Source: an uncultured Dehalococcoidales bacterium (lineage in GTDB: Bacteria > Chloroflexota > Dehalococcoidia > Dehalococcoidales > DAOVUZ01). From it: a DNA stretch of 44,536 nucleotides. The notes under the pieces are model-generated. The model worked only from the letters and a program-made list of their open reading frames with translations, made no database searches and was not told where the DNA came from. Made by a program: the position numbers and the translations under genes. This document shows, in pieces, positions 23,397 to 41,541 of the stretch. Positions within the stretch are counted from its first letter, which is position 1. Every line of letters starts with the position of its first letter. Where the stretch lies: positions 1-44,536 of the forward strand of contig CAZTRJ010000005.1 of the NCBI GenBank assembly GCA_964616615.1, in the 5' to 3' direction.

Positions 23397-25679
23397 TCAG
23401 TTTTCAAGTTTAGTTGGCTTAAACCTTCTTAGACGGAGTGAGTTGAATACTACGGTTATAGAGCTAATGGTCATTGCTGCAGCAGCTAAGATTGGATTCA
23501 GAAATCCATAGTCACCCAGAATGAAATGAAGCCCTGAGGGAACACCGGTTTGGCCGAAGGCAAGGTACAACACTCCTGCTGCTACCGGGATAAGAGCAGT
23601 ATTATAGGCAAACGCCCAGAAGAGGTTCTGCTTAATCGTCCTCATGGTGCGTTTGCTCAGGGATATAGCCGTTACAATTCCGCCTAGATCACCGCTAATC
23701 AGCGTGATGTCCCCTGTCTCCATGGCAACATCGGTGCCGGTGCCGAGGGCAACACCAACATCTGCCTGAGCTAGTGCCGGAGCATCGTTTATCCCGTCAC
23801 CTACCATTGCCACCACCTTTCCCTCATTCTGAAGCTTTTCTACCTCCTGAGCCTTATGCTCCGGAAGTACCTCAGCCAAAATACGGTCAATGCCTACCTC
23901 TTGGGCAATAGCCTGAGCGGTGCGCTGATTGTCTCCAGTGAGCATCCCTATCTCAATACCCATTTTATGTAGCGCTCTCAGCGCCTCTTTGGCGTTGGGC
24001 TTAAGGGTATCAGCCACAGCAATGATGCCCACTACCTGGCTATCTACGCCTAAAAACATCACTGTCTTACCTTTTTCCCATAGGCGCTCTGCTTCTTCCC
24101 CCAATCCGTTCAGGGAAAGGCCCCTATCCGTTATTAATCTAAGGTTACCCAGCAAAAGCTGTTTCCCGACCAATGAAGCCTCGACACCTTGTCCTGGGAT
24201 GGCGTTAAAGTCTAAGGTTGGGGCAACTTCCAGCTTCTTCTCCAGAGCTGCGTTGACTATGGCCGCGCCCAGCGGATGTTCTGAGCCATATTCCGCAGAC
24301 GCCGCTAGCTGAAGAACCTCTTTCTGGGAAGAAAAGGGGGTAGCGATGACATCGGTCACCTTAGGTTCGCCCTGGGTGAGTGTACCCGTTTTGTCCAGCA
24401 GTATGGTACCTATTTGGTGAGACCTTTCCAATGCTTCAGCATTCCGGATAAGAATACCCTGCTCAGCTCCTCTACCGGTGCCTACCATAATTGCGGTGGG
24501 AGTGGCCAGTCCCATGGCACAGGGGCAGGCAATAATGAGCACAGCAACAAAGTTGAGGAAGGCGAAGGTCAAGGTTGGGGCTGGCCCTACAAAGTACCAG
24601 AGGGCGAAGGTACCAACAGCGATGCCAATCACCATCGGTACGAAGTAACTGGCGATGACATCGGCTAGTCGTTGAATAGGTGCCTTGCTTCCCTGGGCTT
24701 CCTCCACCAGCCGGATAATTTGAGCCAGTGTTGTATCCTTACCTACCTTGGTAGCCTCAAATTGAAAACTACCTGTTTTATTGATGGAACCACCGATAAC
24801 CTCATCATCCGTTTTTTTCTCCACCGGGATGCTCTCTCCGGTAATCATAGACTCATCAATACTGGAATACCCCTGTTGAATGATGCCGTCCACAGGAACT
24901 CGCTCACCCGGTCGCACCAAGATGATATCACCAACCTGGACATCTACGATGGGGATTTCCATCTCCTTGCTATCACGAATAACGAGAGCCGTCTTCGGCT
25001 GCATGCCAATAAGTTTCTTTATCGCCTCTGAGGTCTGTCCTCTAGCTCTAGCCTCGAGAAAACGGCCAAGGAGAATCAGGGTAATTATCATGGCTGAGGT
25101 GTCGAAGTAGAGATGTGGTTCCAGTCCGCCAGCGGTAAGAAGTCTGGGAGAGAGAACAACTATCATACTGTAAAAATAGGCAGCCGAAGTGCCTACAGCA
25201 ATGAGGGTATTCATGTCGGCGGTTCGATGCCTGAGTGCTCCCCAGGTCCCAAGGTAAAATCGCCAGCCTGCCCAGAACTGTACCGGTGTCGCCAGAGCCC
25301 AGAGCAGGTAGGCCTTGCCTATAAAGAGGGGAGTCCACATTAGAGCCATGATTGTGCCCGCTAGGATAGCTGCCAAGATAAACTTGTTCCGTATGGTTCT
25401 AATCTCCCGCTGGGCAGCAGTGGTAACATCTTCTAAGGTCTCTGCTTCTGAGCCTAGTTCATAGCCAGCGTCTTTCACTGCCCATCTGAGGTCAGCTAAT
25501 TCCGTTCCCTCGATATATTCTACAGTAGCTTTCTCTGAAGCCAGATTCACATTAGCCGAAATTACCCCAGGCACGCTTGACAGAGCTTGCTCTACGCGGG
25601 CAACACAGGAGGCACAGGTCATACCGGTAATGTGGATATGAGCCTTCTCAGACTTTTTGGACTTTGATTTCTCCGCCAT
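23397..25679 (-). CDS. copA: Cu(I)-type P1B ATPase with a single HMA domain
   Basis: GMTCASC, TGES, CPC, DKTGT, SEHP, GDGIND, YN and MxxSS transmembrane ligands. Confidence 0.93.
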   Translation of the reverse strand: MAEKSKSKKSEKAHIHITGMTCASCVARVEQALSSVPGVISANVNLASEKATVEYIEGTELADLRWAVKDAGYELGSEAETLEDVTTAAQREIRTIRNKFILAAILAGTIMALMWTPLFIGKAYLLWALATPVQFWAGWRFYLGTWGALRHRTADMNTLIAVGTSAAYFYSMIVVLSPRLLTAGGLEPHLYFDTSAMIITLILLGRFLEARARGQTSEAIKKLIGMQPKTALVIRDSKEMEIPIVDVQVGDIILVRPGERVPVDGIIQQGYSSIDESMITGESIPVEKKTDDEVIGGSINKTGSFQFEATKVGKDTTLAQIIRLVEEAQGSKAPIQRLADVIASYFVPMVIGIAVGTFALWYFVGPAPTLTFAFLNFVAVLIIACPCAMGLATPTAIMVGTGRGAEQGILIRNAEALERSHQIGTILLDKTGTLTQGEPKVTDVIATPFSSQKEVLQLAASAEYGSEHPLGAAIVNAALEKKLEVAPTLDFNAIPGQGVEASLVGKQLLLGNLRLITDRGLSLNGLGEEAERLWEKGKTVMFLGVDSQVVGIIAVADTLKPNAKEALRALHKMGIEIGMLTGDNQRTAQAIAQEVGIDRILAEVLPEHKAQEVEKLQNEGKVVAMVGDGINDAPALAQADVGVALGTGTDVAMETGDITLISGDLGGIVTAISLSKRTMRTIKQNLFWAFAYNTALIPVAAGVLYLAFGQTGVPSGLHFILGDYGFLNPILAAAAMTISSITVVFNSLRLRRFKPTKLEN

Positions 25680-25722: not shown

Positions 25723-26535
25723 TTAACCGAAGGCGACGTCAAGTAACATCATTACTGCAAAGCCAACCATCCCGCCCATGGTGGCTAAATCCGTATTGCC
25801 GCCGCGCTGCGCTTCTGGGACTACCTCCTCTATCACGACAAATATCATAGCACCGGCAGCAAAAGCCAAAGCGTATGGCAGGATAGGCTGGGCAATGATA
25901 ACGGCCGCAGCTCCAATAACACCAGCGACGGGTTCAACAACTGCGGATAGTTGTCCATACCAGAAGCTCTTCCGACGAGACATACCTTCACGGCGAAGAG
26001 GTATGGAAACTGCCAGCCCCTCAGGGAAGTTCTGAATACCGATGCCGATGGCCAGAGCAATAGCCGCTCCCAAAGTAGCCGAAGGTAAACCGACAGCAAG
26101 AGCTCCGAAGGCCACCCCAACGGCAAGACCTTCAGGGATGTTATGCAGTGTTATAGCCAGAACGAGCAAGGTGCTTCGCTGCCAGCTTGTCTTGATCCCC
26201 TCCGCTTCCTCAGTGGCAAAGCCAAGGTGTAGATGGGGTAGTACCTTATCAGCACCTCTCAGAAAGATACCGCCAAACAAGAAGCCTACAACAGCCGGAA
26301 CCCATGCCGGGATGTCCTTCCCTTGTGACATCTCAATAGCTGGCGCCAGTAGCGACCAGTAGCTGGCAGCAATCATAACCCCACCAGCAAAACCAAGCAT
26401 TGCATCGAGGAACCGTCGGCTTATGTCCTTGGCAGTAAATACGGCAGCTGCCCCCAAAGCAGTCATGGCCCAGGTAAAGCATGTTGCCAGAAGCGCCTGT
26501 ATAACCGGGTGAAGGTTTTGAAAAAAATACATCAT
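25723..26535 (-). CDS. ZIP family metal transporter (GufA/ZupT-like)
   Basis: LHNIPEG, QNFPEG, multiple hydrophobic helices. Confidence 0.92.
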
Positions 26536-26565
26536 GCTTTCAACCCAGCTCAGACAGAAGGTTTC

Positions 26566-27201
26566 TTATTCCGTAAATTCAACCGCTACTTCTTTAACAT
26601 CCCAAAGTGGTTCTATCTTCTCCACAATTTCTTCCTTCATGGCGGAAGCAAACTGGTTATCCGCAGGCAAATCCACAATCACTCGCACAGCTCCATCCTT
26701 TACCTCAATATCTTTCACCAAGTTAGTGCGAACCAAGTCTAACCCGCTTAATGGATTCATGACTTTCTTCAGGCGGCTACGCACCGTCTCCACTGTGGTC
26801 GGTTTTTTCTCCTTGACCAGGCCGTGGCGCTCTTCATAGTTTTCAATGGCGGAACGTAAGCCTTCTACCGCAAGTACTGAGCAATGAGCCTTGATTTTGG
26901 GAAGTCCTCCCAGTGCTTCCGAAGCTTCCTTCCAGGTGATATTCTTGGCTTCATCCAGTGTTTTCCCCTTGGCCAGTTCGGTAATGATAGAGCCGGTGGC
27001 AATGTTAGAAGCACAGCCGTAAGATTCAAACTTGATGTCGGTGAGTTTATTGGTATTGGGGTCAACACTTATGTAGACCGAAACCATATCGCCGCAGGCT
27101 GGACTACCCTCTATTGTCTTTCCGTCGGCATTCTCAATCTTGCCCACATTGCGAGGATGGCGGAAGTGTTCCAGCACAGTTTCACTATATGGGAATTTCA
27201 T
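26566..27201 (-). CDS. iscU: IscU/NifU-N scaffold fused to a C-terminal DUF59-like domain
   Basis: HFRHPRNVG, ACGD, YGCAS, LPKIKAHC; C-terminal V.NPL..LDLV..LVKDI without Cys. Confidence 0.88.
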   Translation of the reverse strand: MKFPYSETVLEHFRHPRNVGKIENADGKTIEGSPACGDMVSVYISVDPNTNKLTDIKFESYGCASNIATGSIITELAKGKTLDEAKNITWKEASEALGGLPKIKAHCSVLAVEGLRSAIENYEERHGLVKEKKPTTVETVRSRLKKVMNPLSGLDLVRTNLVKDIEVKDGAVRVIVDLPADNQFASAMKEEIVEKIEPLWDVKEVAVEFTE

Positions 27202-27215
27202 TTCTATCTCTCCTA

Positions 27216-28388
27216 TTATTCTTTCTCTTTGCCCAACGGGCTGATACTCCTCAACTCCTGCACCACCTCAGCCAGCGTCTCAACCACGGTGTCGACATCT
27301 TCCATAGTGTTGTAACGCCCAAAGGTAAAACGAATCGAACCGTGTGCCCTTTCGTGGTCACCGCCGATTCCAAATATCACATGGCTGCCCTCCAGAGAGC
27401 GGCTGAAACAGGCAGAGCCGGTGCTTACGGCGATACCATGCATATCAAGATGCAGGGTGATAGATTCACCTTCCACAAAATGGAACGTAATATTGGCATT
27501 CTGCGGAAGTCTCTTCCAGCGATGGCCGTTGAGGGTACTGTTTGGTATCTCGGTAATCATACGGTCAATAATACGGTCACACATAGCTTGTAGCCGCTCG
27601 GTTTCTTCCGGGGTGACCAGTTGTACCGCTTTGGCAAATCCCACTGCACTAGGTATGTTTTCCAGCCCCGCGCGAAGGTTAAACTCCTGAAATCCACCAT
27701 CTACCCATTTGGCTATTGGTGTTCCTTGACGGATATACAGGCCTCCTATACCCTTTGGTCCGTGTATGGTATGGGCAGACACGGTGACTAAATCCACTGG
27801 TATTTCAGTCAAGTCGATAGGGACTCGGGGGAAGGTATGAGTGGCATCAGTATGAAAAAGCACCCCTTTCCCACGACAGATACGACTGATACTTTCGATA
27901 TCCTGAATGGTGCCAATCTCCTGGTTGGCATGCTGGATGGAAACTAGAATGGTCTCACCTGTTATAGAATCTGCCAGCTTGCCAAGGTCTACCAAGCCAT
28001 CACTATCCACGTCCAGATAGGTCACCCGGAAGCCCTGTTTCTCCAGGGTTCTTACACTGTAGAGTACAGGAAAATCTTCGATTTTTGACACGATTACGTG
28101 TTTGCCCTTCTTCTCACCAAGAGCCAAGGCCACTCCCTTCAGGGCAATGTTCGAGGATTCGGTACTTCCTGATGTAAAAATGAACTCTTCAGGTGCCGCT
28201 CCCATAGTTGTAGCAACAGCCTCTCTAGCCCCGTCTAGAGCTTCTCGGGCTTCTATACCCTGCGAGTAGGCAAACTCCGAGGTGGCTACAGCGTACTTAT
28301 CGAAATAGTACGGCATCATTGCCTCCAGTACTCGCTCGTCAAGCCGGGTAGCCGCTGCGTTGTCCAGATAAACAGGCCTGTTAGACAT
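27216..28388 (-). CDS. IscS/NifS-like protein lacking the PLP-binding lysine (probable pseudo-desulfurase)
   Basis: YLDNAAAT, FTSGSTES, ANQEIGT, STGSAC and SIRFT retained; SAHTIHGPKG replaces SxHKxxGPKG; IEDFPV replaces xEHxxV. Confidence 0.88.
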   Translation of the reverse strand: MSNRPVYLDNAAATRLDERVLEAMMPYYFDKYAVATSEFAYSQGIEAREALDGAREAVATTMGAAPEEFIFTSGSTESSNIALKGVALALGEKKGKHVIVSKIEDFPVLYSVRTLEKQGFRVTYLDVDSDGLVDLGKLADSITGETILVSIQHANQEIGTIQDIESISRICRGKGVLFHTDATHTFPRVPIDLTEIPVDLVTVSAHTIHGPKGIGGLYIRQGTPIAKWVDGGFQEFNLRAGLENIPSAVGFAKAVQLVTPEETERLQAMCDRIIDRMITEIPNSTLNGHRWKRLPQNANITFHFVEGESITLHLDMHGIAVSTGSACFSRSLEGSHVIFGIGGDHERAHGSIRFTFGRYNTMEDVDTVVETLAEVVQELRSISPLGKEKE

Positions 28389-28400
28389 TTCCTTCTCCTA

Positions 28401-28820
28401 TCATATGAACAGAGTTACTGTTGATTCCTTAGCCTCATTTATGTAGGTACCAACTGCGCAGTAATCCGATATCAAATCATCACGGAGGTCTTCTTTCTTT
28501 ATCCCCATTATCTCCATGGTCATGTCACAGGCAAGGAGTTTGCCTCCAAGTTCCTTAAAGTCCTGTAGGAGCTTCTCAAGGGAGGCTACACCGACCTTCT
28601 TCATCTTCCGTTTCACCATCCACTTACCGAGTCCCAGCATGTTCATTTTGGACAGAGCCCCCTTTTCCAGACCGCCTTTCTTGAGACGCTGAAGCCCCCA
28701 GAACGTGAAGTAGAGTGATACTTCCATCCCCATTGACAGAGCGCCATTGGCGATAATAAGGGCGCTGTAAACCTTGTCCATATCACCACTGTGAACTATT
28801 ATGGTAGCTTTGTCAGCCAT
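28401..28820 (-). CDS. DsrE/DsrF/DrsH-like sulfur carrier
   Basis: SGDMDK, YFTFWGL, LLACDMTMEIMG, terminal TLFI. Confidence 0.88.
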   Translation of the reverse strand: MADKATIIVHSGDMDKVYSALIIANGALSMGMEVSLYFTFWGLQRLKKGGLEKGALSKMNMLGLGKWMVKRKMKKVGVASLEKLLQDFKELGGKLLACDMTMEIMGIKKEDLRDDLISDYCAVGTYINEAKESTVTLFI

Positions 28821-28835
28821 GGTCGCTTCCTCCTT

Positions 28836-29057
28836 CTACCTCTGTATCCTTATCTTCCAAACTCCGTCCTTTTCCTCCACGGCAATAAGTTCCAGTCCCA
28901 ACGCCTTGACCGCCATTGGTATCTCTTTCTTGGAAGAGGGATGTGTTCCGATAACCTCGACCACATCACCTTCTTTTGCTTTCCTCAAAGCTTTACGGGT
29001 TTCAATCAAAGGGACCGGGCAAGTTTCGCCAGTGCAGTTCACCTTTATCTCAGCCAT
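28836..29057 (-). CDS. tusA: TusA family sulfur carrier
   Basis: CTGETCPVP motif, 73 aa, GDVVEV. Confidence 0.88.
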   Translation of the reverse strand: MAEIKVNCTGETCPVPLIETRKALRKAKEGDVVEVIGTHPSSKKEIPMAVKALGLELIAVEEKDGVWKIRIQR

Positions 29058-29172
29058 TTTTCATCACCCCCCGTCACCTGTCTGTGGCTTTCTTTGCTAG
29101 ACTCTAAGGATTATTCATTGTTAATTAGCGAGTCCTTGCTCTGCTCACAATTAACCTCTGGCGACTCTATAC

Positions 29173-31140
29173 TTAAGCTGTGTCCAGCTCTCGCCGCATT
29201 GCCATATCGTAGAGCACCCTCTCTCTAGCCTTGTCAATACCAAGTGCTTGGCGCTTGTTGTCAATGTGCTCAATCATAAGGGTCGCTGCCTTAATCGGAT
29301 CCGGCTCATAGGCCCACATACCGCCGTATATCTCTTCGAAATCATGGAAGAGGAACTTGGTGACTTCTTCATTGCCGATAGTGGGCCAATTAACACCGAA
29401 TACCGTAAACACTCCTGAGCCAACAAAGTACTGGCCAATGGAAAGTGCCTTCTCACTCATCCATTCAGGAGCTGCCCCGGCTACAGGGAGGTCACTGAGG
29501 TCATCTCCCAAGCCACCGTCTTTAACCATGGCAGTAGCCGCTATCAGAATGCGTGCGTTGTCAACACAGGAGCCAAGATGTAATACTGGTGGAATACCAA
29601 CCGCTTCACATACTGAAGCCAGTCCCTTACCAGCATACTTCGCTGCTGCCTCCGGGGTCATCAGTCCTGCTTTGGCGCAGGCCATGGCACTACAGCCGGT
29701 TTGTAGCACCAAAACATCGTTTTTAATTAGTTCCTTAACCATAGTGACATGAACATCATCGTGAGCAACCCGAGCGTTATTACAGCCGACGACCCCAGCC
29801 ACGCCCCTGATTCGGCCATTGATGATGTTGTCGTTTAACGGTCGGTAGGAAGCGCGGAACAGACCACCCAACAGGTAGTTAATAGTTTCATGGCTGAATC
29901 CAGCAATAAGGTCAGTTCTATAATTTGGAATACGAACGTTACTACCTCTATTAGGAAAATTGTCAATGGCGGCTCGGACTATATCCTTGGCGGTCTCAAT
30001 GGCATTATGCTCATCAAATTCGATGTGAGTTGCACCTTGGATATGGGCTCTGGGGTCAGTGGTAATAACCTTAGTATGGAAGCATTGGGCTACATCGGTA
30101 ATTCCCTGCATAATACACTGGACATCAACTACCATAGCCTCGAGCGCGCCAGTAACTATAGCTAACTCCTGCTGTAGGAAGTTACCGGCGATGGGTATCC
30201 CATGGCGCATCAATATCTCATTGGCGGTGCAGCACATACCTGCCAGGTTTATGCCGCTGGCTCCTTTCGATTTGGCGTATTCAATCATCTCAGGGTCTTG
30301 AGTGACGACGGCCAACATCTCAGCCAGCTGTGGCTCGTGACCGTGAATAATGAGATTCACCTCGTCTTCCTTTAGTACCCCCAGGTTTATCTGGCTGAGC
30401 ACCGGCGACGGTGTACCAAAGAGAATATCCTGAAGCTCAGTGGCGAGCATACTGCCGCCCCAGCCATCGGCTAGCGCGGTTCTAACCGACTGGAGGAGTA
30501 AGCTTTTATAATCCTGGTCAACGCCCATATGGGTGCGGTGCATAGCCTCTACCACCTCTCGGTCTATACCGCGAGGTGCTACCCCTAGCCCTCGCCACAG
30601 TTCCTGCCGCTTTAACGGCGCCCGTCTTAATAACAAAAGCTCTCCATCCTGTCGGCCAAACTCCCTTATCGCGAGTTCGCCAATATCAACGGCTATTTCG
30701 TCATTGGTGCGCTCCCCAATCTCGACGCCAAAATCCAGGGCCAGTTGCAGCAATTTCTGCTCATCTTTAATCTGAAAGCCTGGTTCCTCTCCTTTGGCTG
30801 TAGCCAGAAAGGCCTCGGTCACCTTTCGACCATGGTCACTATGGGCGGCAGCTCCGGCAGCTATCTTGCGCAAGAAGTTACGGGCTGCGATAGTCTCAGG
30901 AGTAGCACCACAGACACCGACTCTTTTTCGTTTCTCCTCCGGGGTTTCCTCTTTTCCTTTAGCTAAGGCGACCCGACAGGGCCCCATAGCGCAAATACTA
31001 CAGCAACTACCTACGCTGCCTATGGGGCAAGCCCTAGTCGACTCCGCTCGCTCAAAAACAACCCGAGCGTCGTCTTGAGCCGCTTTCTCTATCATCTCTA
31101 TGGTAGCCTGGTCAATGCTTTTAGCTTGTTTCTCTTCCAT
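29173..31140 (-). CDS. cooS: anaerobic Ni,Fe carbon-monoxide dehydrogenase catalytic subunit
   Basis: CX7CCX2CX4C D/B-cluster motif, AAHSDH, C-cluster ligands HGH, CCTANE, DVQC, GCNN, TGC, GSCVD, and PEWMSEKA. Confidence 0.95.
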   Translation of the reverse strand: MEEKQAKSIDQATIEMIEKAAQDDARVVFERAESTRACPIGSVGSCCSICAMGPCRVALAKGKEETPEEKRKRVGVCGATPETIAARNFLRKIAAGAAAHSDHGRKVTEAFLATAKGEEPGFQIKDEQKLLQLALDFGVEIGERTNDEIAVDIGELAIREFGRQDGELLLLRRAPLKRQELWRGLGVAPRGIDREVVEAMHRTHMGVDQDYKSLLLQSVRTALADGWGGSMLATELQDILFGTPSPVLSQINLGVLKEDEVNLIIHGHEPQLAEMLAVVTQDPEMIEYAKSKGASGINLAGMCCTANEILMRHGIPIAGNFLQQELAIVTGALEAMVVDVQCIMQGITDVAQCFHTKVITTDPRAHIQGATHIEFDEHNAIETAKDIVRAAIDNFPNRGSNVRIPNYRTDLIAGFSHETINYLLGGLFRASYRPLNDNIINGRIRGVAGVVGCNNARVAHDDVHVTMVKELIKNDVLVLQTGCSAMACAKAGLMTPEAAAKYAGKGLASVCEAVGIPPVLHLGSCVDNARILIAATAMVKDGGLGDDLSDLPVAGAAPEWMSEKALSIGQYFVGSGVFTVFGVNWPTIGNEEVTKFLFHDFEEIYGGMWAYEPDPIKAATLMIEHIDNKRQALGIDKARERVLYDMAMRRELDTA

Positions 31141-31227
31141 ATCACGTCGTCTTCCTTTTCCTGATTATCCTTCGCCGTCAGTTTAGCTATTACCTACGGA
31201 TTAAGCCTATGGCGTTTAGTCCATATG

Positions 31228-31749
31228 TTAGTCTCGTAGAGCTTCAATTATTGCTTTATTGAATCTCGGCAAGTCTGCTGGCTTGCGCGATGTGATAAGA
31301 TTTCCATCCTGAACTACTGGTGCATCGACCCAGTCTGCACCAGCATTTCTAAGGTCCACGGCTACCGAAGACCAGGAGGTAACACGGTGTCCTCTAACTA
31401 TTTCAGCTGAAATAAGGAGCTGCGGTCCATGGCAAATAGCCGCTACCACCTTACCTAAGTCATATACCTTTCTCACCAGCTCAACCATGGATTGGTTAGA
31501 GCACATCTTATCAGTAGCATAGCCACCAGGCACGATAATGGCATCAAAATCCTCGGCCCTGATATTATCAGCAGTAGCATCGACTCTTACAGTACTGCTA
31601 CCGCTTTTGCCTTTGTAAGTTTCCTTAGAACCACTGCCTACAATCACTACTTTAGCGCCAGCATTCTTCATTGCCCTCAGTGGTTCAATAAGTTCAGAAT
31701 CCTCAAAGCCATCTTCTGCTAGAATGGCAATCTTCTTTCCATCGAGCAT
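31228..31749 (-). CDS. PfpI/DJ-1 family protein
   Basis: GFEDSEL, VPGG, AICHGP, ITSRKPADL. Confidence 0.92.
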   Translation of the reverse strand: MLDGKKIAILAEDGFEDSELIEPLRAMKNAGAKVVIVGSGSKETYKGKSGSSTVRVDATADNIRAEDFDAIIVPGGYATDKMCSNQSMVELVRKVYDLGKVVAAICHGPQLLISAEIVRGHRVTSWSSVAVDLRNAGADWVDAPVVQDGNLITSRKPADLPRFNKAIIEALRD

Positions 31750-31879
31750 ACCCTTTACCCTCCTTTTCTAGGGAATATCCAATTGGCTTTACTGTGCTGA
31801 CAAAGCCGCTTTGAACCTCCTTTCTTTGCACTGGTTCTACTCCGTTGAGAAAGCTTGGGAGAAGTAGCACTATTTAATA

Positions 31880-31943
31880 ATAGCGAGCCAGTAATAACGA
31901 AGTCATAAAATGGGAGGAGAAAAAGTTACAAAATTATGACATT
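31880..31943 (-). promoter_or_regulatory. 64-bp promoter/operator block of the leftward arm
   Basis: Inverted 58/64-identical copy of 34639-34702; TGTCATAATTT-TGTAAC tandem repeat; ends in a TATTAT -10-like hexamer. Confidence 0.75.
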
Positions 31944-32013
31944 ACAGGCAGTACTCTCTAGGGGAAAGCTTACAATATAAGTAGAATCTTGGAGGGCGAA
32001 ATCTTGAAGCTAT

Positions 32014-32712
32014 TCAGGCCGAGGGTTGGTCTATGATATAGCCCGTCTTGGCGATAGTGCGAATCAGCCTGGGATGGTTAGGGTCACTTTCCAGCTTGTT
32101 TCTTAGCCGACTAATCCATGTCCTGAGGATTTGGACATCATCTCGGTATTCCGGTCCCCAGACCCGGGTTAGTAGCTCTTCATAGAGCATGAGACGGCCA
32201 GCATTATTGACAAGCTGGCTGAGCAGAAGCCATTCAATGCGGGTCAGGTATTTTTCCTCACCGTTGACAAGCACGGTATGCTTCTTAAAATCGATGGTCA
32301 CCTGCCCTAAATTGAAAACCTCTGGGATTTTGCGTCTTTCGCCGGGTTCGAGCCGGCGCCTGACCGACTCGATCCTAGCTATGAGTTCGTCAGGGTTGAA
32401 GGGCTTTGGCAGGTAGTCATCAGCCCCTAATTGTAACCCTTTGATTCGGTCAGCATCGGCACCTTTGGCAGTAAGCATAATAACTGGCACCGCCGAAAAA
32501 CTACGCAACTCCTTAAGCATCTCCAGTCCGTCCATTTTGGGCATAAGCAGGTCAAGTACAATCAGGTCAGGTTCTTGAGCCTGAGCCTGCTCCAGGCCCT
32601 CAATGCCATTGCTGGCGGTCAGTACTTCATACCCTGAGGCTTTAAACTTGGTTCTGAGGAAATTGATAATCCGTTCCTCATCGTCAACTACCAGTATGCG
32701 AAATTGCTTCAC
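32014..32712 (-). CDS. OmpR/KdpE-family response regulator
   Basis: VVDDE, VLDLLMP, LTA, KPF receiver; winged HTH (LRTWISRLRNKLE, IRT..KTGY). Confidence 0.94.
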   Translation of the reverse strand: MKQFRILVVDDEERIINFLRTKFKASGYEVLTASNGIEGLEQAQAQEPDLIVLDLLMPKMDGLEMLKELRSFSAVPVIMLTAKGADADRIKGLQLGADDYLPKPFNPDELIARIESVRRRLEPGERRKIPEVFNLGQVTIDFKKHTVLVNGEEKYLTRIEWLLLSQLVNNAGRLMLYEELLTRVWGPEYRDDVQILRTWISRLRNKLESDPNHPRLIRTIAKTGYIIDQPSA

Positions 32713-32892
32713 AGAAATATCTCCGGGTTTATCTACTCCAAGTCAGAATGATAGTTCCAAGGTCAGCGGATGTCAAAGCCTCTTCATAATATGGATGCTG
32801 CCTTGACTAGACTACTGGCTGAAACTAGAATGTTAGACATCGGTGTACAGGGCCAACGTCTCGCGATAAAGAGCTAATTAAGGAGCACCCCG

Positions 32893-34596
32893 GTGAGGAG
32901 TTATAGCAAAAAACGGGGAGTGGCACAGGAACCATCGAACCGGTCCGCCAGGGTTGGCTTGAAGGGTATAACTGCAAACGTGCAAGCGGAGAGGGATTTA
33001 CTTGTTGGTGTCCTGGAAATACTGAGCCAGAGCCGGCACGCGAACGAATACCTGGAGCGACTCGTCGAGCAACTCAGGAACTATTCAGGCTGCCGCTGTG
33101 TGGGTATTCGTCTCCTGGACGATGACGGGAATATCCCTTACAGTTCGTACACCGGTTTCAGCCGTGAGTTTTACGAAAGTGAAAACCCTCTATGTATCAA
33201 GTCGGACAAATGCATGTGCGTTAATGTGATAATGGGAAATATCCAGTCGGGGCTTCCCTCCTATACCAAGGGTGGCTCCTTCCTCAGCAATAGCACGACC
33301 AAGCTTCTGGCATCAGTTTCTGAGGAAATCAAAGGCCAAACCAGGAATGTGTGCAACCAGTGCGGCTACGAATCGGTAGCTCTGGTGCCGATGCGGCATC
33401 AAGGCAAAATCTTGGGCTTAATTCACCTGGCTGATGAAAGCGAAAACAAAATTCCTCTACAAAGAGTCCAATTCCTAGAGCAAGTAGGGACCTATATTGG
33501 TGAGATCCTGCACACATTCGTGGCTGAAGGTGCGCTTCAGGAAAGCGAAAGGCGCTACCGAGACCTCTATGAAGAGGCTCCCAATGCCTACTTTGCGGTT
33601 GGGGTAGACGGCTGCATTAAACAGGCAAACCGCAGTGCTACGAAACTGCTTGGCTATAGCTTGGGTGAGCTGGTTGGGCGTCCGGTGTTTGACTTGTATG
33701 CCGATACGCCAAACGGCAAAGCTAAGGCACAAGGAGTATTTCAGAGGTTTCTTGCTGGCGAGGAGATTCGTGACGAAGAGTTGGAGATGTGCCGAGCCGA
33801 CGGCAGTAATGTGTGGATTAGCCTATCAGTGAGGCCAGTACGCGACAGAGAAGGGCGGGTGGTGGCCAGCCGGTCGGTGGTAGTGGATATCACCGAGCGC
33901 AAAAGACTAGACCAGCTAAAAGACGAGTTCATTGGTCTTGTATCCCATGAGCTCCGCAGCCCCTTGACGGTTATCACCGGAGCGGTCAATACAGCTTTAA
34001 CCGAAGGAGAACGTCTGTCTCCAGAAGAAACACGTCAACTGCTGCAGGACGCAGCTCTGGAAGCTGAATCGCTGTCCCACATGTTGGGAAATCTCTTGGA
34101 GCTGTCCAGAGTGCGGGCAAACCGCCTGTTCCTTCATGCCGAAGCAATCAGTGTCAGAAAAGTAGTTCAAGACACCGTTGAAGAAATAAAGCGCCAGTCT
34201 TCATCGCATCAGTTTGTGGTGGACATCCCGGAGGAAGTGCCCTCGGTTTATGCTGACGAATTGAGACTGGAGCGTATCCTCTACAATCTCCTTGAAAACG
34301 CAGTTAAGTACTCACCACAAGGAGGGGAGATACGAATCTCCGCCAGACCAGAGGAAAAGCACCTGGTTATCGGGGTTAGTGACTAAGGGATAGGCATATC
34401 TCATTCTGACCAGGCTAAGCTATTTGGGCCTTTCCAGCGCCTCGAAGAGTCCAGACCTGATGGAGTTGGAGGAGTAGGACTGGGACTATTGGTGTGTCGC
34501 CGGCTGGTGGAGGCGCATGGCGGCCGAATCTGGGTCGAATCGGAACCCGACCAGGGTTCCACCTTCTTTTTTACCATACCCTTGAGCCATAGTTAA
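32893..34596 (+). pseudogene. GAF-PAS sensor histidine kinase interrupted by in-frame TAA (34384-34386)
   Basis: SHELRSPL H box and NLLENAVKY N box; after the TAA the same frame continues GIGI..LFGPFQR..GVGLGL..HGGRIWVES..GSTFFFTIP to TAA at 34594-34596. Confidence 0.88.
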
Positions 34597-34638
34597 CCTG
34601 GCGGGAATTCTGAACCTTCTTCAGGGACTAAAGCCGGC

Positions 34639-34702
34639 AATGTCATAATTTTGTAACTTTTTCTCCTTTCATTTTATGACTTTGTCATCGCTGGCTCGCT
34701 AT
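34639..34702 (+). promoter_or_regulatory. 64-bp promoter/operator block of the rightward arm
   Basis: Inverted copy of 31880-31943; TGTCA/TGTAA at 11-bp spacing, ATGAC-TTT-GTCAT palindrome, TATGAT -10-like hexamer at 34700-34705. Confidence 0.75.
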
Positions 34703-34775
34703 GATTATTGCTGGATACCCTACGGGCCTGGGAAGTGGGACCTTAGTTGAGACAATAAACTAAAGGAGGTGAGCT

Positions 34776-35270
34776 ATGGAAATAGAGAGATGGAAGCCGG
34801 GGAGAGGACTAATTCCCTGGAGACCATTTAGCGAGCTAGGGGAGATAGAACGGCATTTTGAGGATATTTTAGGTCGGCCGTTTCTACCTGCGGCATGGAG
34901 ACGTATCCCTACGGTGGAGATGGGATGGGCACCAGCGATAGAGGTGTTCGAAAAAGAGGATAAGTTCGTGGTAAAGGCTGAAATCCCGGGGATGAAGGAA
35001 GAGGACATAGATATCTCAGTGGTAGGCGATACATTAACCGTAAAAGGGGAGCGGAAGGCTGAGAGCGAGGTCAAAGAAGAAGATTACTACTGCTGTGAGC
35101 GTTCTTACGGCAGCTTCTCCCGCTCGATAACCGTGCCCTCTAACGTAGATGCCACAAAGATTGAAGCCAGTTATGAGAATGGAGTCCTGGAGGTTAGCCT
35201 TCCCAAAGCCCCAGAGGTTAAGCCAAAGAAGATAGCAGTTACGGCTAAGAAGGAGAAAGCCAGTAAGTAA
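34776..35270 (+). CDS. Hsp20/alpha-crystallin small heat-shock protein
   Basis: AEIPG, ERSYGSFSR, ASYENGVLEV.LPK; AGGAGGTG SD. Confidence 0.94.
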   Translation: MEIERWKPGRGLIPWRPFSELGEIERHFEDILGRPFLPAAWRRIPTVEMGWAPAIEVFEKEDKFVVKAEIPGMKEEDIDISVVGDTLTVKGERKAESEVKEEDYYCCERSYGSFSRSITVPSNVDATKIEASYENGVLEVSLPKAPEVKPKKIAVTAKKEKASK

Positions 35271-35362
35271 TCTACTGAGCCTTTGTCGTCCCGCTTCCCA
35301 ACCTTTGGGTGTCATATTAAAGAGATTAGCGTCTTCTAAAAGTAATACTAAGGAGGTATGAA

Positions 35363-35941
35363 ATGACTTACTCAGCAAAAGACTACAGCAATCTCATCGG
35401 AATGGAGGGCTTCAGTGAAACCTTACTTAAGAATCACTTCACTCTCTATCAAGGTTATGTAGCCAATACTAACAAACTTTCAGACTCGCTCAGTGGCATG
35501 CTAAGAGAGGGGAAGACCGGCATTCCAGAATACTCTGAGCTTAAACGCCGTTTTGGTTTTGAGTTCAACGGCATGCGTCTCCACGAATACTACTTTGAGA
35601 ACCTGGGAGGTAAAGCCCCCCTGGACCAATCGGGCACTCTAGCCAAGAAGGTAGCTGGTGCCTATGGCAGCTATGATGCCTGGGAGAAGGATTTCAGGGC
35701 TACCGGAGCAATGCGTGGCATTGGCTGGGTGATACTTTATCAGGATGATGTGACCGGCTGGCTGTTTAACCAGTGGATCAATGAGCATGAAGTTGGTCAT
35801 TTTGCCGGTTGCCTTCCTATCCTGGTAATGGATGTCTTTGAACATGCCTTCATCACCGATTATGGGCTGAAGCGAGCTGATTATATAGAAGCCTTTTTCA
35901 GGAACATAAACTGGAATGTGGTGGAAGGTAGGTTGAGATAG
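35363..35941 (+). CDS. sod: Fe/Mn superoxide dismutase family protein
   Basis: NH..LY.GYV, LHEYYFENL, MDVFEHAF. Confidence 0.88.
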   Translation: MTYSAKDYSNLIGMEGFSETLLKNHFTLYQGYVANTNKLSDSLSGMLREGKTGIPEYSELKRRFGFEFNGMRLHEYYFENLGGKAPLDQSGTLAKKVAGAYGSYDAWEKDFRATGAMRGIGWVILYQDDVTGWLFNQWINEHEVGHFAGCLPILVMDVFEHAFITDYGLKRADYIEAFFRNINWNVVEGRLR

Positions 35942-35968
35942 GTAGCCTACTGCTGGAAGGAGGCATAA

Positions 35969-36535
35969 TTGAAAAGTCTGGGGATTATGGGAAGCCCGAG
36001 AATAGCAGGCAATACAGATCTACTACTGGATGAGGCTTTAAATGGGGCACAAAGTCAGGGGGCAAAGGTCGAGAAGATTGTCGTAGGTAGTCTCAACATA
36101 GCCCCGTGCCGTGAGTACTACGGGTGCTTGAGGGATGGCAACTGCGTCATCAGAGACGACATGGATGGTATATATCCAAAGCTCCTTGATGCCGATGTTG
36201 TAATAGTTGCCTCACCGATGTTTTTCTACGGACTGACCAGTCAGCTTAAGGCGCTCATCGACCGTTGCCAAGCGCTATACGTCAGAAGATACGTTCTTAA
36301 TCAGAACCCGCCTAATTCTGCGAGGAAGGGGGCGTTTATCGCTGTCGGAGCCACCAGAGGCGAAAAATTGTTTGACGGGTCGATACTAACTGTAAAATAT
36401 TTCTTCCAATCCATCGGAGTCAAGTATGTTGACGAGCTTCTTGTCCGGGGTGTAGATAGGAGAGGGGCGATTAAGGAGCATCAAACTGCACTCTCGGACG
36501 CATTTGAACTGGGTAGGAGGCTAGCTCAAAAGTAG
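35969..36535 (+). CDS. flavodoxin-fold / iron-sulfur flavoprotein-like FMN reductase
   Basis: GSPR..GNT, PC..Y..C.....C, ASPMFF, KALIDR. Confidence 0.85.
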   Translation: MKSLGIMGSPRIAGNTDLLLDEALNGAQSQGAKVEKIVVGSLNIAPCREYYGCLRDGNCVIRDDMDGIYPKLLDADVVIVASPMFFYGLTSQLKALIDRCQALYVRRYVLNQNPPNSARKGAFIAVGATRGEKLFDGSILTVKYFFQSIGVKYVDELLVRGVDRRGAIKEHQTALSDAFELGRRLAQK

Positions 36536-36638
36536 GGGAGAATGAAGGCACTTACACTGAGGGTCACAGGGCTGTTTTTACCGATGACTAGGTCATTAGC
36601 GAAATGGCGACTAAGGCGAAAAACAGGAGGATGCAACA

Positions 36639-37109
36639 ATGGAAACTCACTTAACCCTCAAAGCGGTTTTGGGAATGGCGATACGGAAGGAAATTGACTC
36701 ACAGCACCTGTATAGTCACTTAAGCCAGCAAATGACCGACGAAGCTGCCATAGATGTTTTGCGAGAGCTAGTCCGACAAGAACAGGGGCATCAGCAGCTA
36801 CTGGAACAATATTTACGGGGTGAATTACAGGGAGGGATGCTAAGTCAGGAACAGGGTATAGATTATAAGATTGCAGAGCGATTGGACCAACCGGAAATAT
36901 CTCCTGATATGAGGATAAAAGACGTCTTCCTTTTGGCTGCCAACCATGAAAAGGAATCCCACGAGTTCTATCTTGCTCTTGCTCAAATCCATCCTGCTGG
37001 AGAGGTGAAAAGACTAATTGAAGGGCTAGCAGCACAAGAACTGGAGCACAAGCAGAGAGTGGAGTTTCTATATACGGAAGTTGCTTTTCCTCAGACAGAT
37101 GGTGGGTGA
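36639..37109 (+). CDS. ferritin-like (rubrerythrin diiron) protein
   Basis: AIRKE..S..Y, EQGH, HEKES.EFY, ELEH; ends FPQTDGG. Confidence 0.85.
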   Translation: METHLTLKAVLGMAIRKEIDSQHLYSHLSQQMTDEAAIDVLRELVRQEQGHQQLLEQYLRGELQGGMLSQEQGIDYKIAERLDQPEISPDMRIKDVFLLAANHEKESHEFYLALAQIHPAGEVKRLIEGLAAQELEHKQRVEFLYTEVAFPQTDGG

Positions 37110-37331
37110 GACTGCCAATATTCACCAAAATGGTTCCAAGCGGGCACAATTCCTGTGGAAGGGGGCAGATAAAAAGACACGCGTTTAACCAAGCTAGGCA
37201 TTGCCATCGGCTTGAGCTCAGAGGGAGGTGTGAAATGTAAGCACAAACCAAGAACCGACAGGGAAATCCCAGTTTAGGCACTACAATAGTGCTTAAACAG
37301 CCTTACTAAATTATAAAGGAAGGAAACCATA

Positions 37332-37763
37332 ATGACAAAGGAAGAACTGGCAAAGACGTTGAATCAGGCTTTGGAATTGGAGCATGCGGCGAGGATACAA
37401 TATCTGGCTCACGCCGAACAAGCGACTACTCCGGCGGTAATCGCTAGGCTGAAAGAGATTGCAGATGACGAGAAAAATCATGAAGACGTATTCCGAGGGC
37501 TAATAGGGGGTTACTTAGACGCGGTACCTTCTATGGGTATGGCAGAAACCCACACTGCCAAAACTGAAAGGGAAATTCTGGAAGTAAACCTTGATGACGA
37601 GAAACATGCGGTTGACGTTTACATGGGAATATTGGACAAAATGAGGGAAATGAAAGAAGACTTGAAGTACGAATATCTCCAGTTAGAGCATGGGGTTAGG
37701 CATGTAATACAGGATGAAGAGGACCATATATCAGAGTTGAAACTCCTTCTGGAAAGGGGGTGA
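37332..37763 (+). CDS. ferritin-like (bacterioferritin/DPS-like) protein
   Basis: ELEH.A.IQY..H, EKNH, EKHAV.VY, EEDH. Confidence 0.85.
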   Translation: MTKEELAKTLNQALELEHAARIQYLAHAEQATTPAVIARLKEIADDEKNHEDVFRGLIGGYLDAVPSMGMAETHTAKTEREILEVNLDDEKHAVDVYMGILDKMREMKEDLKYEYLQLEHGVRHVIQDEEDHISELKLLLERG

Positions 37764-37764
37764 T

Positions 37765-38115
37765 ATGAGTGATATGGTTCAAGTAAGCAGAAGCATTGAA
37801 CTCGAAGACGGCGCTATGAAACAGGTCCTAGCTCAGGGGCGAGAAATACTTCTGGCCAGGGTCGGGGATAACTACTACGCCGCTGACAACCGCTGTCCTC
37901 ACCTGGGAGGCAAGTTATCGGAGGGCAAGCTGGAAGGGACTGTAGTCACCTGTCCGATGCATGGCTCTCAGTTCGACCTCAGTGATGGCCGGGTAGTCCG
38001 CTGGTTGAAAGGTTCTGGGCTAGTCTCGGCAGTGGGCAAGGCTCTGAAATCACCCAGACAGCTTACCCTATACAATGTAAAGGTCGAAGACGACAATATC
38101 TTGGTAGAAATCTAG
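37765..38115 (+). CDS. Rieske [2Fe-2S] ferredoxin
   Basis: CPH...CPMHGSQFD. Confidence 0.92.
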   Translation: MSDMVQVSRSIELEDGAMKQVLAQGREILLARVGDNYYAADNRCPHLGGKLSEGKLEGTVVTCPMHGSQFDLSDGRVVRWLKGSGLVSAVGKALKSPRQLTLYNVKVEDDNILVEI

Positions 38116-38168
38116 TCTCTAGCATTTAATAAATAGTCGCCTAGGAACAGGCTGGAGGGGGTGTTACT

Positions 38169-39020: not shown

Positions 39021-39038
39021 CTGAAAAGGAGGCCGGGG

Positions 39039-40409: not shown

Positions 40410-40424
40410 TCAGGAGGGTTAAGG

Positions 40425-40880
40425 ATGCTAGATGAATTGACTGACCTATTGGATACTGCCATATATAAAGAGATTGCGTCTCAAGCTTTCTATATAGCTG
40501 GACAAAGCAAAACGCAAGACCCTGGTGCCAAGGCGTTGATGAAGGAGCTAGCCGAAGAAGAGTCAAGGCATTCAGAGTGGCTGAAGGAGCTTAAGGGAAA
40601 ATGGGTAGGAAAGCAGGATTGGCACCAGGAGAGGGTGCAGAACCTGAAGATTAGTGAGTATCTGACTGGTGGCGAGATGCTGGAAGGTGCCAGCCTCCAG
40701 GACACGCTTACTTTCGCTATGAAGCGTGAGCAACAGTCTATTGAGTTCTACTCAAAATTGATGAGTGTAATGAGAGACGAGGCAGCAAAACGCCTCTGTG
40801 AAAGGCTAGTCCATGAGGAACTCAAGCACAAGCTGATATTGGAGACGTTCTACGATGACTTTTTCTATGGAGAGGACTGA
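40425..40880 (+). CDS. ferritin-like (rubrerythrin diiron) protein
   Basis: AIYKE.AS..FY, ESRH, REQQS.EFY, ELKH. Confidence 0.85.
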   Translation: MLDELTDLLDTAIYKEIASQAFYIAGQSKTQDPGAKALMKELAEEESRHSEWLKELKGKWVGKQDWHQERVQNLKISEYLTGGEMLEGASLQDTLTFAMKREQQSIEFYSKLMSVMRDEAAKRLCERLVHEELKHKLILETFYDDFFYGED

Positions 40881-40929
40881 GCAGTTGTCTTGTTATCGTT
40901 AGCAAAATCAGGATACAGGGAGGTGGAGG

Positions 40930-41256: not shown

Positions 41257-41541
41257 CGCGGTAACTATAATAGAGAAGTCAACTACGAACCAGGCACGCT
41301 TACTAGTAGACAGTAAACCAGCAAAGGAGTTACTCCAGAGAGCGGCCGGGGTAACGTAAAACATATGCAGTAAAGGGGGTAAAATGTAGCAAAAGTAAAC
41401 AAATAAGATTACCGGAGTGTTGTTTAGAAAATACTTCGCGGCAAAAATATAAATGCGAGGTAAGGAGGTTTTTTATGAAAAAGGTACTATTCCGGTATTA
41501 GCGGCGCGACTGAAAAGGTAATAAAACTTAACAAAGGAGTT

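Follow-up and report, generated by a model that had tools for sequence, protein, structure and literature searches.

Archaeoglobus fulgidus possesses an IscS that is described as having no desulfurase activity and as providing a Cys ligand to the [2Fe-2S] cluster on its partner scaffold, IscU (PMC7585200, PMC13066941). Here we analyze a four-gene cassette, tusA-dsrE-iscS-iscU::DUF59, whose IscS-like product (here called IscSx) invites comparison with that protein. The cassette occupies positions 26566-29057 on the minus strand of contig CAZTRJ010000005.1 (positions 1 to 44,536) from an uncultured Dehalococcoidales bacterium of the phylum Chloroflexota (GenBank assembly GCA_964616615.1); this whole stretch of 44,536 nucleotides (nt) is referred to below as the window. 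Like the IscS2 of the A. fulgidus IscS2-IscU pair, which is known from solved structures (4eb5, 4eb7, and 4hvk, with 4r5f for the D199K form), IscSx has no lysine at the position that forms the Schiff base with pyridoxal phosphate (PLP), retains the loop Cys, and is linked to IscU. A. fulgidus IscS2 keeps the PLP-stacking His and the GNPSS motif and has Asp at the Lys position, whereas IscSx has Asp105, VATSE, His184, and Thr207. To our knowledge, A. fulgidus IscU does not carry a DUF59 tail.

The essential Lys is also absent from Methanosarcina acetivorans IscS1, for which a mode of action like that of A. fulgidus IscS has been suggested; the same genome encodes an active IscS2 as well, and IscS1 itself remained uncharacterized, having formed inclusion bodies (PMC7585200). 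A pseudo-desulfurase paralogue beside a working one is likewise what we find in cassette genomes. The minimal iron-sulfur (Fe-S) system MIS (MisS-MisU) of anaerobes and archaea pairs an IscS-like with an IscU-like protein in the absence of chaperones and A-type carriers and is described as having no additional components and as being able to use sulfide (PMC13066941). The IscS-IscU pair of the cassette is similar, but the cassette goes beyond this two-component system in its TusA, its DsrE-family protein, its DUF59 domain, and a MisS/IscS counterpart that is predicted to be PLP free.

Two further groups of described systems resemble the cassette in its sulfur carriers. In the Escherichia coli IscS-TusA and IscS-IscU complexes (3lvj, 3lvl), the fold and the types of partner match those of the cassette, and the salt-bridge residues have counterparts in it; E. 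coli IscS Trp45 corresponds to Ile in IscSx. In E. coli, sulfur released by PLP chemistry passes from IscS to TusA for tRNA thiolation and molybdenum cofactor synthesis, whereas the cassette would run in the reverse direction: because IscSx would be unable to make sulfur by PLP chemistry, any transfer must run from TusA to IscS/IscU. The relays of sulfur oxidizers (Rhd-TusA-DsrEFH-DsrC of Allochromatium vinosum; DsrE3A-TusA of Metallosphaera) and YeeD/TsuB likewise combine a CPxP TusA with a Cys-bearing DsrE-family protein, and carriage of thiosulfonate or persulfide on TusA and DsrE cysteines is documented (PMC11073785, citing Liu et al. 2014; PMC3397948). These relays feed dissimilatory sulfur oxidation or thiosulfate uptake rather than an Fe-S scaffold, and the cassette DsrE is of the small soluble DrsE_2 type.

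The idea of an inactive IscS that partners IscU already has a precedent in A. fulgidus and a suggested one in M. acetivorans IscS1. What is new here is a distinct, very widespread, and tightly conserved Lys-less lineage, the constant association of that lineage with TusA, DrsE_2, and a scaffold that carries a DUF59 tail, and an evolutionary series linking partner gain to cofactor loss. Full-text literature searches, in which subscription papers and supplements were thinly covered so that an earlier mention is possible, returned no description of a cassette of tusA, dsrE, a Lys-less iscS, and iscU::DUF59; the text of the recent review (PMC13066941) leaves DsrE unmentioned and names TusA in the E. 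coli context only, and TusA does not occur in the text of the M. acetivorans paper (PMC7585200).

We hypothesize that the cassette is a four-gene Fe-S assembly module in which a PLP-independent IscS adaptor acts together with the scaffold and receives sulfane sulfur from TusA and the DsrE-family protein, and we give this reading an even chance of being right as a whole. Its parts differ in strength. A role in Fe-S assembly is likely, the odds that TusA and the DsrE-family protein act as sulfur donors are about even, and an ultimate sulfur source other than cysteine seems the less probable outcome.

The IscS-like protein and its PLP site

The four genes run head to tail with spacings of 15, 12, and 14 nt, a purine-rich ribosome-binding stretch precedes each of them, and the G+C content of the region is unremarkable. 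In the order of transcription on the minus strand, the first gene (28836-29057) encodes a TusA-family sulfur carrier of 73 amino acids (aa) with Cys13 in a CPxP motif (Pfam TusA, E = 8e-24), and the second (28401-28820) encodes a 139-aa DsrE-family protein of the DrsE_2 type, hereafter DsrE2, with Cys98 in an AC.MTM motif (Pfam DrsE_2, E = 2e-38). IscSx (27216-28388, 390 aa) matches Aminotran_5 (PF00266, E = 1.9e-68) over residues 6-367. The last open reading frame (ORF; 26566-27201, 211 aa) is a fusion of an IscU/NifU_N scaffold domain (26824-27189; NifU_N, E = 6e-41, residues 5-126) and a C-terminal DUF59 domain, also known as FeS_assembly_P (26581-26790; PF01883, E = 1.9e-13, residues 138-207). 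The ORFs and their Pfam matches thus bear out the initial annotation, which had described a tightly spaced group with TusA and DsrE upstream of the IscS-like gene and a three-Cys IscU with a DUF59 tail downstream of it. No gene for HscAB, IscA, or Fdx was found in the cassette or its conserved flanks.

IscSx was aligned to IscS and NFS1 chains of known structure, to the IscS of E. coli K-12, and to the canonical IscS of its own genome, and all three alignments agree on the T207, D105, and H184 columns and place VATSE, which carries a one-residue insertion, under GNPSS or GNPAS. Lys206, His104, and Gln183 of E. coli IscS are accordingly represented by Thr207 at the Schiff-base position (ACC codon, 27768-27770), Asp105 at the PLP-stacking His position (GAT, 28074-28076), and His184 (CAT, 27837-27839), all on the minus strand like the gene itself; the local strings read AVATSEFA, DATHT, VSAHTIHGPKG, and VSTGSAC. 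Retained are Asp181 (E. coli Asp180, which faces the pyridine N), Arg353, and the STGSAC loop with Cys327 (TGT, 27408-27410, minus strand; E. coli Cys328), the presumptive persulfide or cluster-ligand Cys. Among solved structures, A. fulgidus IscS2 matches best (4eb5/4r5f, E = 3e-105); its Lys column is occupied by Asp in 4eb5 and by Lys in the engineered form, 4r5f. Alignment to the E. coli and A. fulgidus proteins therefore upholds the earlier calls of Thr207, Asp105, the DATH and VATSE motifs, and the kept Cys327.

In E. coli IscS, each of the changes H104Q, Q183E, and K206A abolishes desulfurase activity, and the K206A protein retains some PLP (PMC9978102). Because three residues that are essential in E. 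coli are replaced together in IscSx, the loss of PLP-dependent desulfurase chemistry is well supported by the sequence and very likely. Of the features that define class I cysteine desulfurases, IscSx has the full-length aminotransferase class V fold, the Asp181 equivalent, and the loop Cys; it has neither the Schiff-base Lys nor the counterparts of His104 and Gln183, and it scores below the NCBIfam cut-offs for NifS (442.5 versus 530.75) and for IscS (390.8 versus 548 and 376.1 versus 643.2), just as all four cassette proteins score under every curated NCBIfam equivalog cut-off. The database name "cysteine desulfurase" is probably wrong for the IscSx family. The Lys of the nearby GPKG motif, which had been considered as a relocated catalytic Lys, was rejected in that role since it is also present in canonical IscS and varies within the family (K in 65, R in 12, H in 2, and N in 1 of the 80 related loci described below).

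Conservation, spread, and history of the cassette

Residue conservation was scored in the 120 closest protein clusters, which are 83-100% identical to IscSx, and in genomic loci from a scan of species-representative genomes that yielded at least 535 IscSx relatives, of which the best 80 (73-89% identity) were kept. Across the 120 clusters, T207 is present in 117, D105 in 120, H184 in 117, and C327 in 120, and the key positions read D-H-T-C in 79 of the best 80 loci and D-H-S-C in the remaining one; Asp181 and Cys327 are each found in 80/80 loci. The ratios of nonsynonymous to synonymous substitution rates (dN/dS; Nei-Gojobori, window genes versus the five closest loci) are 0.046-0.102 for TusA, 0.018-0.041 for DsrE2, 0.070-0.114 for IscSx, and 0.055-0.088 for IscU::DUF59, with a median proportion of synonymous differences (pS) of 0.69-0.76, so that synonymous sites are near saturation in most comparisons. 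Base-call error had been judged unlikely and private decay of the gene had been named as a possible flaw; with the substitutions shared by 79/80 loci and by 117-120 of 120 clusters, and with dN/dS at 0.02-0.11 for all four genes rather than near 1, a decaying gene or a sequencing error is rejected, and the pattern goes far beyond what chance would give. As synonymous sites are near saturation, the high protein identity reflects constraint rather than very recent transfer.

The partners are conserved along with IscSx. In 60 of the 63 loci that extend 700 bp or more to each side of the IscS-like gene, TusA, DrsE_2, and IscU::DUF59 lie within 4 kb, and the gene order of the window is nearly always kept among complete cassettes, which settles the question of synteny raised by the initial annotation in favor of a conserved tusA-dsrE-iscS-iscU order. 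The three exceptions (L031, L038, and L058, all Anaerolineae labeled) carry an 84%-identical IscU::DUF59 and a homologue of DrsE_2 on other contigs. Outside the four genes, a CopA-like gene in 13 loci is all that the flanks share.

By label, the 80 loci comprise 50 Dehalococcoidia, 7 Syntrophia, 4 Anaerolineae, 4 Thermodesulfovibrionia, 4 "Myxococcia," 2 Nitrospiria, 2 Clostridia, and 2 unclassified Chloroflexota, four single loci including one from Methanobacteria, and one unlabeled locus titled Altiarchaeales; these are labels of metagenome-assembled genomes, some of which are possibly mis-binned, and several loci are part of complete chromosomes or of contigs 0.27-0.69 Mb long. Complete cassettes span Chloroflexota, Nitrospirota, Syntrophia, Clostridia, and two archaeal lineages. 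Pairwise distances among the loci correlate from one cassette protein to another (Spearman 0.54-0.75, with the observed value reached in 0/300 permutations), and mean pairwise identity is unusually high, ~78-80% for all four proteins, at 76% between phyla versus 80% within them. By these comparisons, the module appears to be inherited and transferred as a unit. Only 5 of 201 evenly sampled genomes of the class, the own genome included, have an orthologue at 76% identity or above. A cassette that is patchy, co-inherited, and strongly constrained therefore fits an accessory function that moves horizontally, and its distribution suggests a valuable one that spreads between bacteria and archaea. 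In a plasmid collection, 312 records match IscSx, all at <60% identity and corresponding to canonical IscS/NifS, and no cassette was found on a plasmid.

Clustering at 50% reduces the IscSx family to one full-length representative (P0121, 69% identity) plus fragments, after which the score falls from 596 to 456 bits and lower. An alignment of 152 sequences, consisting of the window protein, the own canonical IscS, and 150 representatives of about 40-50% identity, has Lys in the Schiff-base column in 130/152 sequences and another residue in 22/152, scattered over the tree, and the loop Cys in 148/152; the distribution of Lys and non-Lys requires 9 changes on the tree, at least 3 of which are forced by well-supported branches. 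In a FastTree phylogeny of 149 representatives, whose deep branches are weakly supported, proteins of the A. fulgidus type, reading H-A-D at the His, Gln, and Lys positions (P0155 and P0214, with P0200), lie apart from the nine-member clade that contains IscSx (support 98). Because the H-A-D proteins form a separate group, the Lys loss in A. fulgidus appears to be independent of that in IscSx.

A closer view of the losses comes from metagenome loci fetched around the nearest sister, P0123, with their neighbors scored. These were placed on a quick IQ-TREE phylogeny of 56 sequences rooted on the own canonical IscS, for which the search was short, similarity to P0123 guided the choice of sequences, and several contigs run out near the genes. 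One clade of this tree (Shimodaira-Hasegawa-like approximate likelihood ratio test support, 99) gathers all the IscS-like genes paired with IscU::DUF59; within it the fusion follows every member with enough flank, most members have TusA, and some have DrsE_2; the gene order is IscS-IscU::DUF59-TusA(-DsrE2) in L101, L105, and L141 and TusA-DsrE2-IscS-IscU::DUF59 in L102 and in the crown family, to which the 80 loci belong. The His-Gln-Lys triad is intact (HQK) in L101 and L104 and reads QK in L141, where the His column is off the contig. Nine loci have HLK, HYK, HMK, or GYK; L096-L098 have HLL, L105 has HRL, L091 and L092 have TWL and VYL, and the crown family has DHT. Parsimony on this tree gives four Lys losses, with Lys ancestral. 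Outside the clade, the relatives sampled mostly keep HQK and have a plain IscU but neither TusA nor DrsE_2. A separate lineage in which Gln replaces Lys (H-A-Q-C) departs from this, with a TusA gene behind IscU in 3/11 loci.

Our reading of this series is that the partners were probably acquired first and that the PLP residues then decayed repeatedly, while the Cys of the loop, the ligand residues of the scaffold, and the cysteines of the carriers stayed fixed throughout. Since intact-HQK relatives (L101, and L141 where readable) share the partners, the partners are not a consequence of Lys loss, although they may have enabled it. The linkage is older than the loss.

As a side observation, the H-A-Q-C lineage (L127-L156, e.g., L131 3721-6956 and L150 967-2484; also L111 6025-6936) has an IscU of 186-196 aa, sometimes with TusA, and its loci often lie near a quinolinate-synthase-like gene (read from N-terminal sequence only), with a small Nfu-like ORF upstream in L131. 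This may be a dedicated NadA-maturation pair with a PLP Lys loss of its own.

Partner proteins and the path of sulfur

The reactive residues of all three partners are conserved. In aligned cassette TusAs, sister lineages included, Cys13 of the CPxP motif is present in 46/46, Arg21 in 46/46, and Arg25 in 39/46. E. coli TusA forms salt bridges from Arg27 and Arg31 to Glu49 and Asp52 of IscS (PMC2854127). Arg21 and Arg25 are the counterparts of this Arg pair, with equal spacing from the Cys, and the docking residues of IscSx are Glu49 (E in 45 and D in 4 of 49), Asp52 (D/E in 44/49), and Arg55 (49/49); the TusA docking surface is conserved on both cassette proteins, consistent with docking as in E. 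coli. The own genome's canonical IscS has Gly at position 49, and a search of the own genome for the TusA family returned the cassette TusA as the only match. Cys98 of DsrE2 is invariant in 40/40 aligned sequences, as well as in 72 main-family and 3 sister sequences, and is shared by the solved relatives 2qs7 and 3pnx; the cassette protein is the only strong DrsE_2 match in its genome, and its NCBIfam DsrE2 score is 74.9 bits versus a cut-off of 210. Cys36, Cys63, His106, and Cys107 of the scaffold are identical in 71 main-family and 15 sister sequences. The fusion to DUF59, a domain without Cys, is present in 60/60 complete cassettes and in sister lineages. A complex prediction from the IscSx, DsrE2, and TusA alignments, with TusA as the scored partner, reached 0.15 against a mark of 0.32 and weighs neither way.

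In the mechanism that we propose, IscSx would dock IscU::DUF59 as an adaptor and perform no PLP chemistry. TusA would bring the sulfur in on its Cys13, bound as a protein persulfide or thiosulfonate, and would dock on helix alpha-2 of IscSx as in the E. coli IscS-TusA complex but with the direction of transfer reversed, and the DrsE_2 protein, through Cys98, would load or buffer TusA. Cys327 of the flexible loop would then hold and pass on the sulfane sulfur and might also ligate the nascent cluster, as in A. fulgidus IscS, and three Cys and one His of IscU would carry the cluster as it is built, with the DUF59 domain helping to pass it on. TusA and DsrE2 cannot be mere acceptors of a product of IscSx's own PLP chemistry, because strong purifying selection on both persists after PLP loss; the simplest account is that they are the donors and that Cys327 relays or presents sulfur to IscU.

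The kinship of the cassette TusA offers a lead, by analogy, to an inorganic sulfur source. Of the proteins with solved structures, TM0983 and the YeeD portion of Spirochaeta thermophila YeeE-YeeD (E = 7e-11) are nearest to it, and E. coli TusA is only distantly related (E = 2e-4). S. thermophila YeeD decomposes thiosulfate, its CPxP Cys carrying persulfide, thiosulfonate, and perthiosulfonate (PMC11073785). Thiosulfate uptake coupled to YeeE was considered for the cassette and rejected, the own genome having no Sulf_transp match. Among NCBIfam models, the cassette TusA scores best with the selenium-metabolism protein YedF (45.5 bits versus a cut-off of 79), ahead of TusA.

A stronger form of the hypothesis is possible, at chances clearly short of even. 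In this form the cassette would be a horizontally mobile Fe-S route of anaerobes that does without free cysteine: TusA and DsrE2 would capture inorganic or low-molecular-weight sulfane sulfur (polysulfide, thiosulfate, or persulfides) and hand it to Cys327 of a PLP-free adaptor, the Asp/His-rich pocket would hold a new ligand, possibly iron, and IscU::DUF59 would build and deliver the cluster. If this is true, the PLP Lys losses that recur independently in the clade in which these partners were first gained would record a switch in sulfur source.

Several observations weigh against TusA and DsrE2 as donors to a PLP-free adaptor and against a source other than cysteine. All six cassette genomes checked (the own and five others) encode at least one canonical H-Q-K-C desulfurase. 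The own genome (1.19 Mb, 96% complete; the window is its contig C5) has a canonical IscS (GNPSS, EHH, DAVQ, SAHK) and a plain IscU on contig C7 and a third NifU_N/SufU-like gene with two SufBD-core genes on contig C4. With a canonical desulfurase and two SufBD-core genes present, a cysteine-independent route is not needed by the cell, and with canonical desulfurases in 6/6 cassette genomes, cysteine is a possible ultimate sulfur source; the earlier proposal that the cassette bypasses cysteine is thus not supported as stated. Further, relatives with an HQK triad already have TusA, DsrE2, and IscU::DUF59 (L101; L141 where readable), and since TusA may be an acceptor in these, as it is in E. coli, the linkage does not tell which way sulfur flows. 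Of the persulfide relay first proposed for this locus, the loss of the PLP desulfurase has held up, whereas we infer the direction of flow. DrsE_2 is missing beside many sister-lineage genes, and TusA is missing beside L100 and L111 despite long flanks. The conserved flanks contain no rhodanese, DsrC, Hdr-like, or YeeE partner, so that no sulfane-sulfur-generating enzyme travels with the cassette; a search of the own genome, which is 96% complete as noted, found no YeeE (Sulf_transp); and in five other cassette genomes, rhodanese genes were adjacent to the cassette in 0/5 and were not found at all in 2/5. Finally, Thr76 (78/80 loci), His206 (79/80), and Ser204 (63/80), which from IscS structures we take to be binders of the PLP phosphate, are mostly retained, so IscSx may bind PLP or another phosphorylated ligand noncovalently.

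Among the rival explanations, the one that survives best, although we consider it somewhat unlikely, is that IscSx is a structural partner only, with Cys327 as a fourth cluster ligand and free sulfide as the source, while TusA and DsrE2 have a separate but linked job such as buffering reactive sulfur species, shielding the scaffold thiols, or regulating the scaffold. A. fulgidus IscS provides the precedent of an inactive protein that nevertheless ligates the [2Fe-2S] cluster on IscU (PMC7585200, PMC13066941), and the minimal MIS and SMS systems can use sulfide according to a 2026 review (PMC13066941). The dispensability of DsrE2 in many sister-lineage loci agrees with it, as does the placement of the cassette among rubrerythrin, ferritin, glutaredoxin, and CopA genes in several genomes. 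However, TusA is the most constant partner over the deep clade, with a reactive Cys and an Arg pair that matches the acidic pair of IscSx, and the proteins of the A. fulgidus type are a separate lineage in which His is kept, Gln has become Ser or Ala, and Lys has become Asp.

An unlikely reading, too, is that of a cysteine-dependent branch, in which a canonical IscS/NifS makes the persulfide and TusA ferries it to IscSx and IscU::DUF59, which would make the cassette a specialized scaffold, stress tolerant or dedicated to particular targets, rather than another point of entry for sulfur. The canonical H-Q-K-C desulfurases of the six cassette genomes would supply such a branch, TusA is loaded by IscS in E. 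coli (PMC2854127), and in L037, L053, L055, and L074 (Dehalococcoidia) and in L083 (Altiarchaeales) the cassette has a canonical IscS-IscU pair no more than 3 kb away. These are only 5/80 loci, however, and in the one genome compared, the own canonical IscS does not have the Glu49 that IscSx keeps.

That the remodeled pocket has acquired a new ligand is doubtful. On this explanation, Asp105, Asp181, His184, His206, His209, and Thr207 would form a site for a metal (e.g., ferrous iron) or a small molecule, and IscSx would be a donor of iron or of something else. The pocket is fixed in the crown family (D105, D181, H184, and H209 in 80/80 loci; H206 and T207 in 79/80), whereas only 37% of columns (144/390) are equally conserved, and the replacements of Gln by His and of Tyr by His (209) add imidazoles, as the replacement of His by Asp adds a carboxylate. 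The fixation hints at a new role for the rebuilt pocket, structural or ligand binding, but the sister lineages hold hydrophobic residues (Leu, Trp, Tyr, and Val) at the equivalent positions, which advises caution and looks like pocket filling rather than a metal site, and the high overall conservation inflates the apparent specificity of the pocket. Least probable of these is that IscSx remains an enzyme that desulfurates cysteine or a related substrate with noncovalent PLP or another cofactor: it retains the fold, Asp181, Arg353, the Cys loop, and most of the putative phosphate-binding residues, and E. coli K206A keeps some PLP (PMC9978102), but three residues essential in E. coli have changed together, the GPKG Lys is shared with canonical enzymes and is K in 65/80 loci, and the scores lie under all NCBIfam desulfurase cut-offs.

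Genomic surroundings and significance

Downstream of the cassette in the window are genes for a ZIP transporter (25723-26535, minus strand; Pfam Zip) and a CopA-like P-type ATPase (23397-25679, minus strand) with an N-terminal GMTCASC motif and a CPC motif. A CopA-like gene lies 3' of IscU::DUF59 in 13/80 loci, all of the Dehalococcoidia type (besides the window, L016, L017, L022, L024, L026, L028, L032, L035, L042, L050, L052, and L089), and in the window itself a ZIP-family metal transporter separates the two. The ZIP and CopA-like genes are context and not a conserved part of the cassette; the CopA neighbor suggests co-regulation of the cassette with metal stress or metal supply. In two Anaerolineae-labeled genomes, L054 and L058, the IscS-like gene is separated from its partners, in L054 by a ferritin gene inserted before IscU::DUF59, and its surroundings (L058 2200-6361; L054 2683-7410) encode a CRP/FNR-type regulator, rubrerythrin, a ferritin-like protein, glutaredoxin, and a ferredoxin-thioredoxin-reductase/rubredoxin fusion. 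These loci point to an iron or redox-stress context.

Upstream, 115 nt from tusA, is a stand-alone gene for the catalytic subunit of an anaerobic CO dehydrogenase (29173-31140, minus strand; TIGR01702, 657.8 bits versus a cut-off of 478). A maturation system specific to CO dehydrogenase was rejected because this adjacency is absent from the 80 related loci, none of which has a CooS counterpart covering at least half of the query. Sequence scans gave 15 promoter-like sites versus 9.1 +/- 3.2 in shuffles and 5 terminator-like sites versus 7.9 +/- 3.0, with no convincing promoter or terminator in the 115-nt gap, and an Rfam scan of 26000-31500 with E up to 0.1 returned no match. For 26400-29200, no RNA sequencing run was listed; the runs that contained at least half of the sampled sequence words were six DNA runs from two studies, labeled marine or seawater metagenome, two of which may be the source sample.

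Beyond the CO dehydrogenase gene, away from tusA, is a stress and sulfur island (31228-44304, both strands) that encodes DJ-1/PfpI, a response regulator, a PAS/GAF histidine kinase, Hsp20, an Fe/Mn superoxide dismutase, an FMN reductase, and several rubrerythrin/ferritin-like proteins. Domain matches in the island identify a rhodanese-rubrerythrin fusion (38169-39020), a metallo-beta-lactamase-fold protein with two rhodanese domains (39039-40409), a double-rhodanese protein (41542-42261), and a DUF255 thioredoxin-like protein (42280-44304); the second of these is presumably akin to persulfide dioxygenase-sulfurtransferase fusions. All five rhodanese-domain matches of the genome lie at 38.2-42.2 kb of the window, 9-13 kb from the cassette. 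A rhodanese as the sulfur donor of the cassette was rejected, since this linkage is not conserved in the five other cassette genomes.

Elsewhere in the genome, the canonical IscS-IscU pair (L001, contig C7, 1-2075) immediately follows a 93-aa ORF and the end of a larger one. We take these two to resemble genes tied to sulfide-dependent homocysteine synthesis in anaerobes, of the NIL-domain/ferredoxin and threonine-synthase-like kinds. With canonical IscSU, SufBD-core, and the cassette, the genome has three gene sets for Fe-S assembly, an unusual redundancy at a size of 1.19 Mb.

How sulfur reaches Fe-S scaffolds without cysteine in strict anaerobes is recognized as an unanswered question. The M. 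acetivorans paper describes as unknown what carries sulfur from sulfide to the scaffold (PMC7585200), and minimal Fe-S systems are called the least studied in the 2026 review (PMC13066941). The cassette offers a compact test system for this question, with four small genes, invariant reactive Cys residues, natural intermediates that still have PLP residues, and a candidate protein for each step. It is also among the clearest cases of an enzyme becoming a noncatalytic adaptor, its cofactor residues having apparently been lost stepwise, about four times and independently, after the gain of its partners. Common to many oxygen-avoiding microbes, the cassette hints at a way of building Fe-S clusters that possibly does not start from cysteine.

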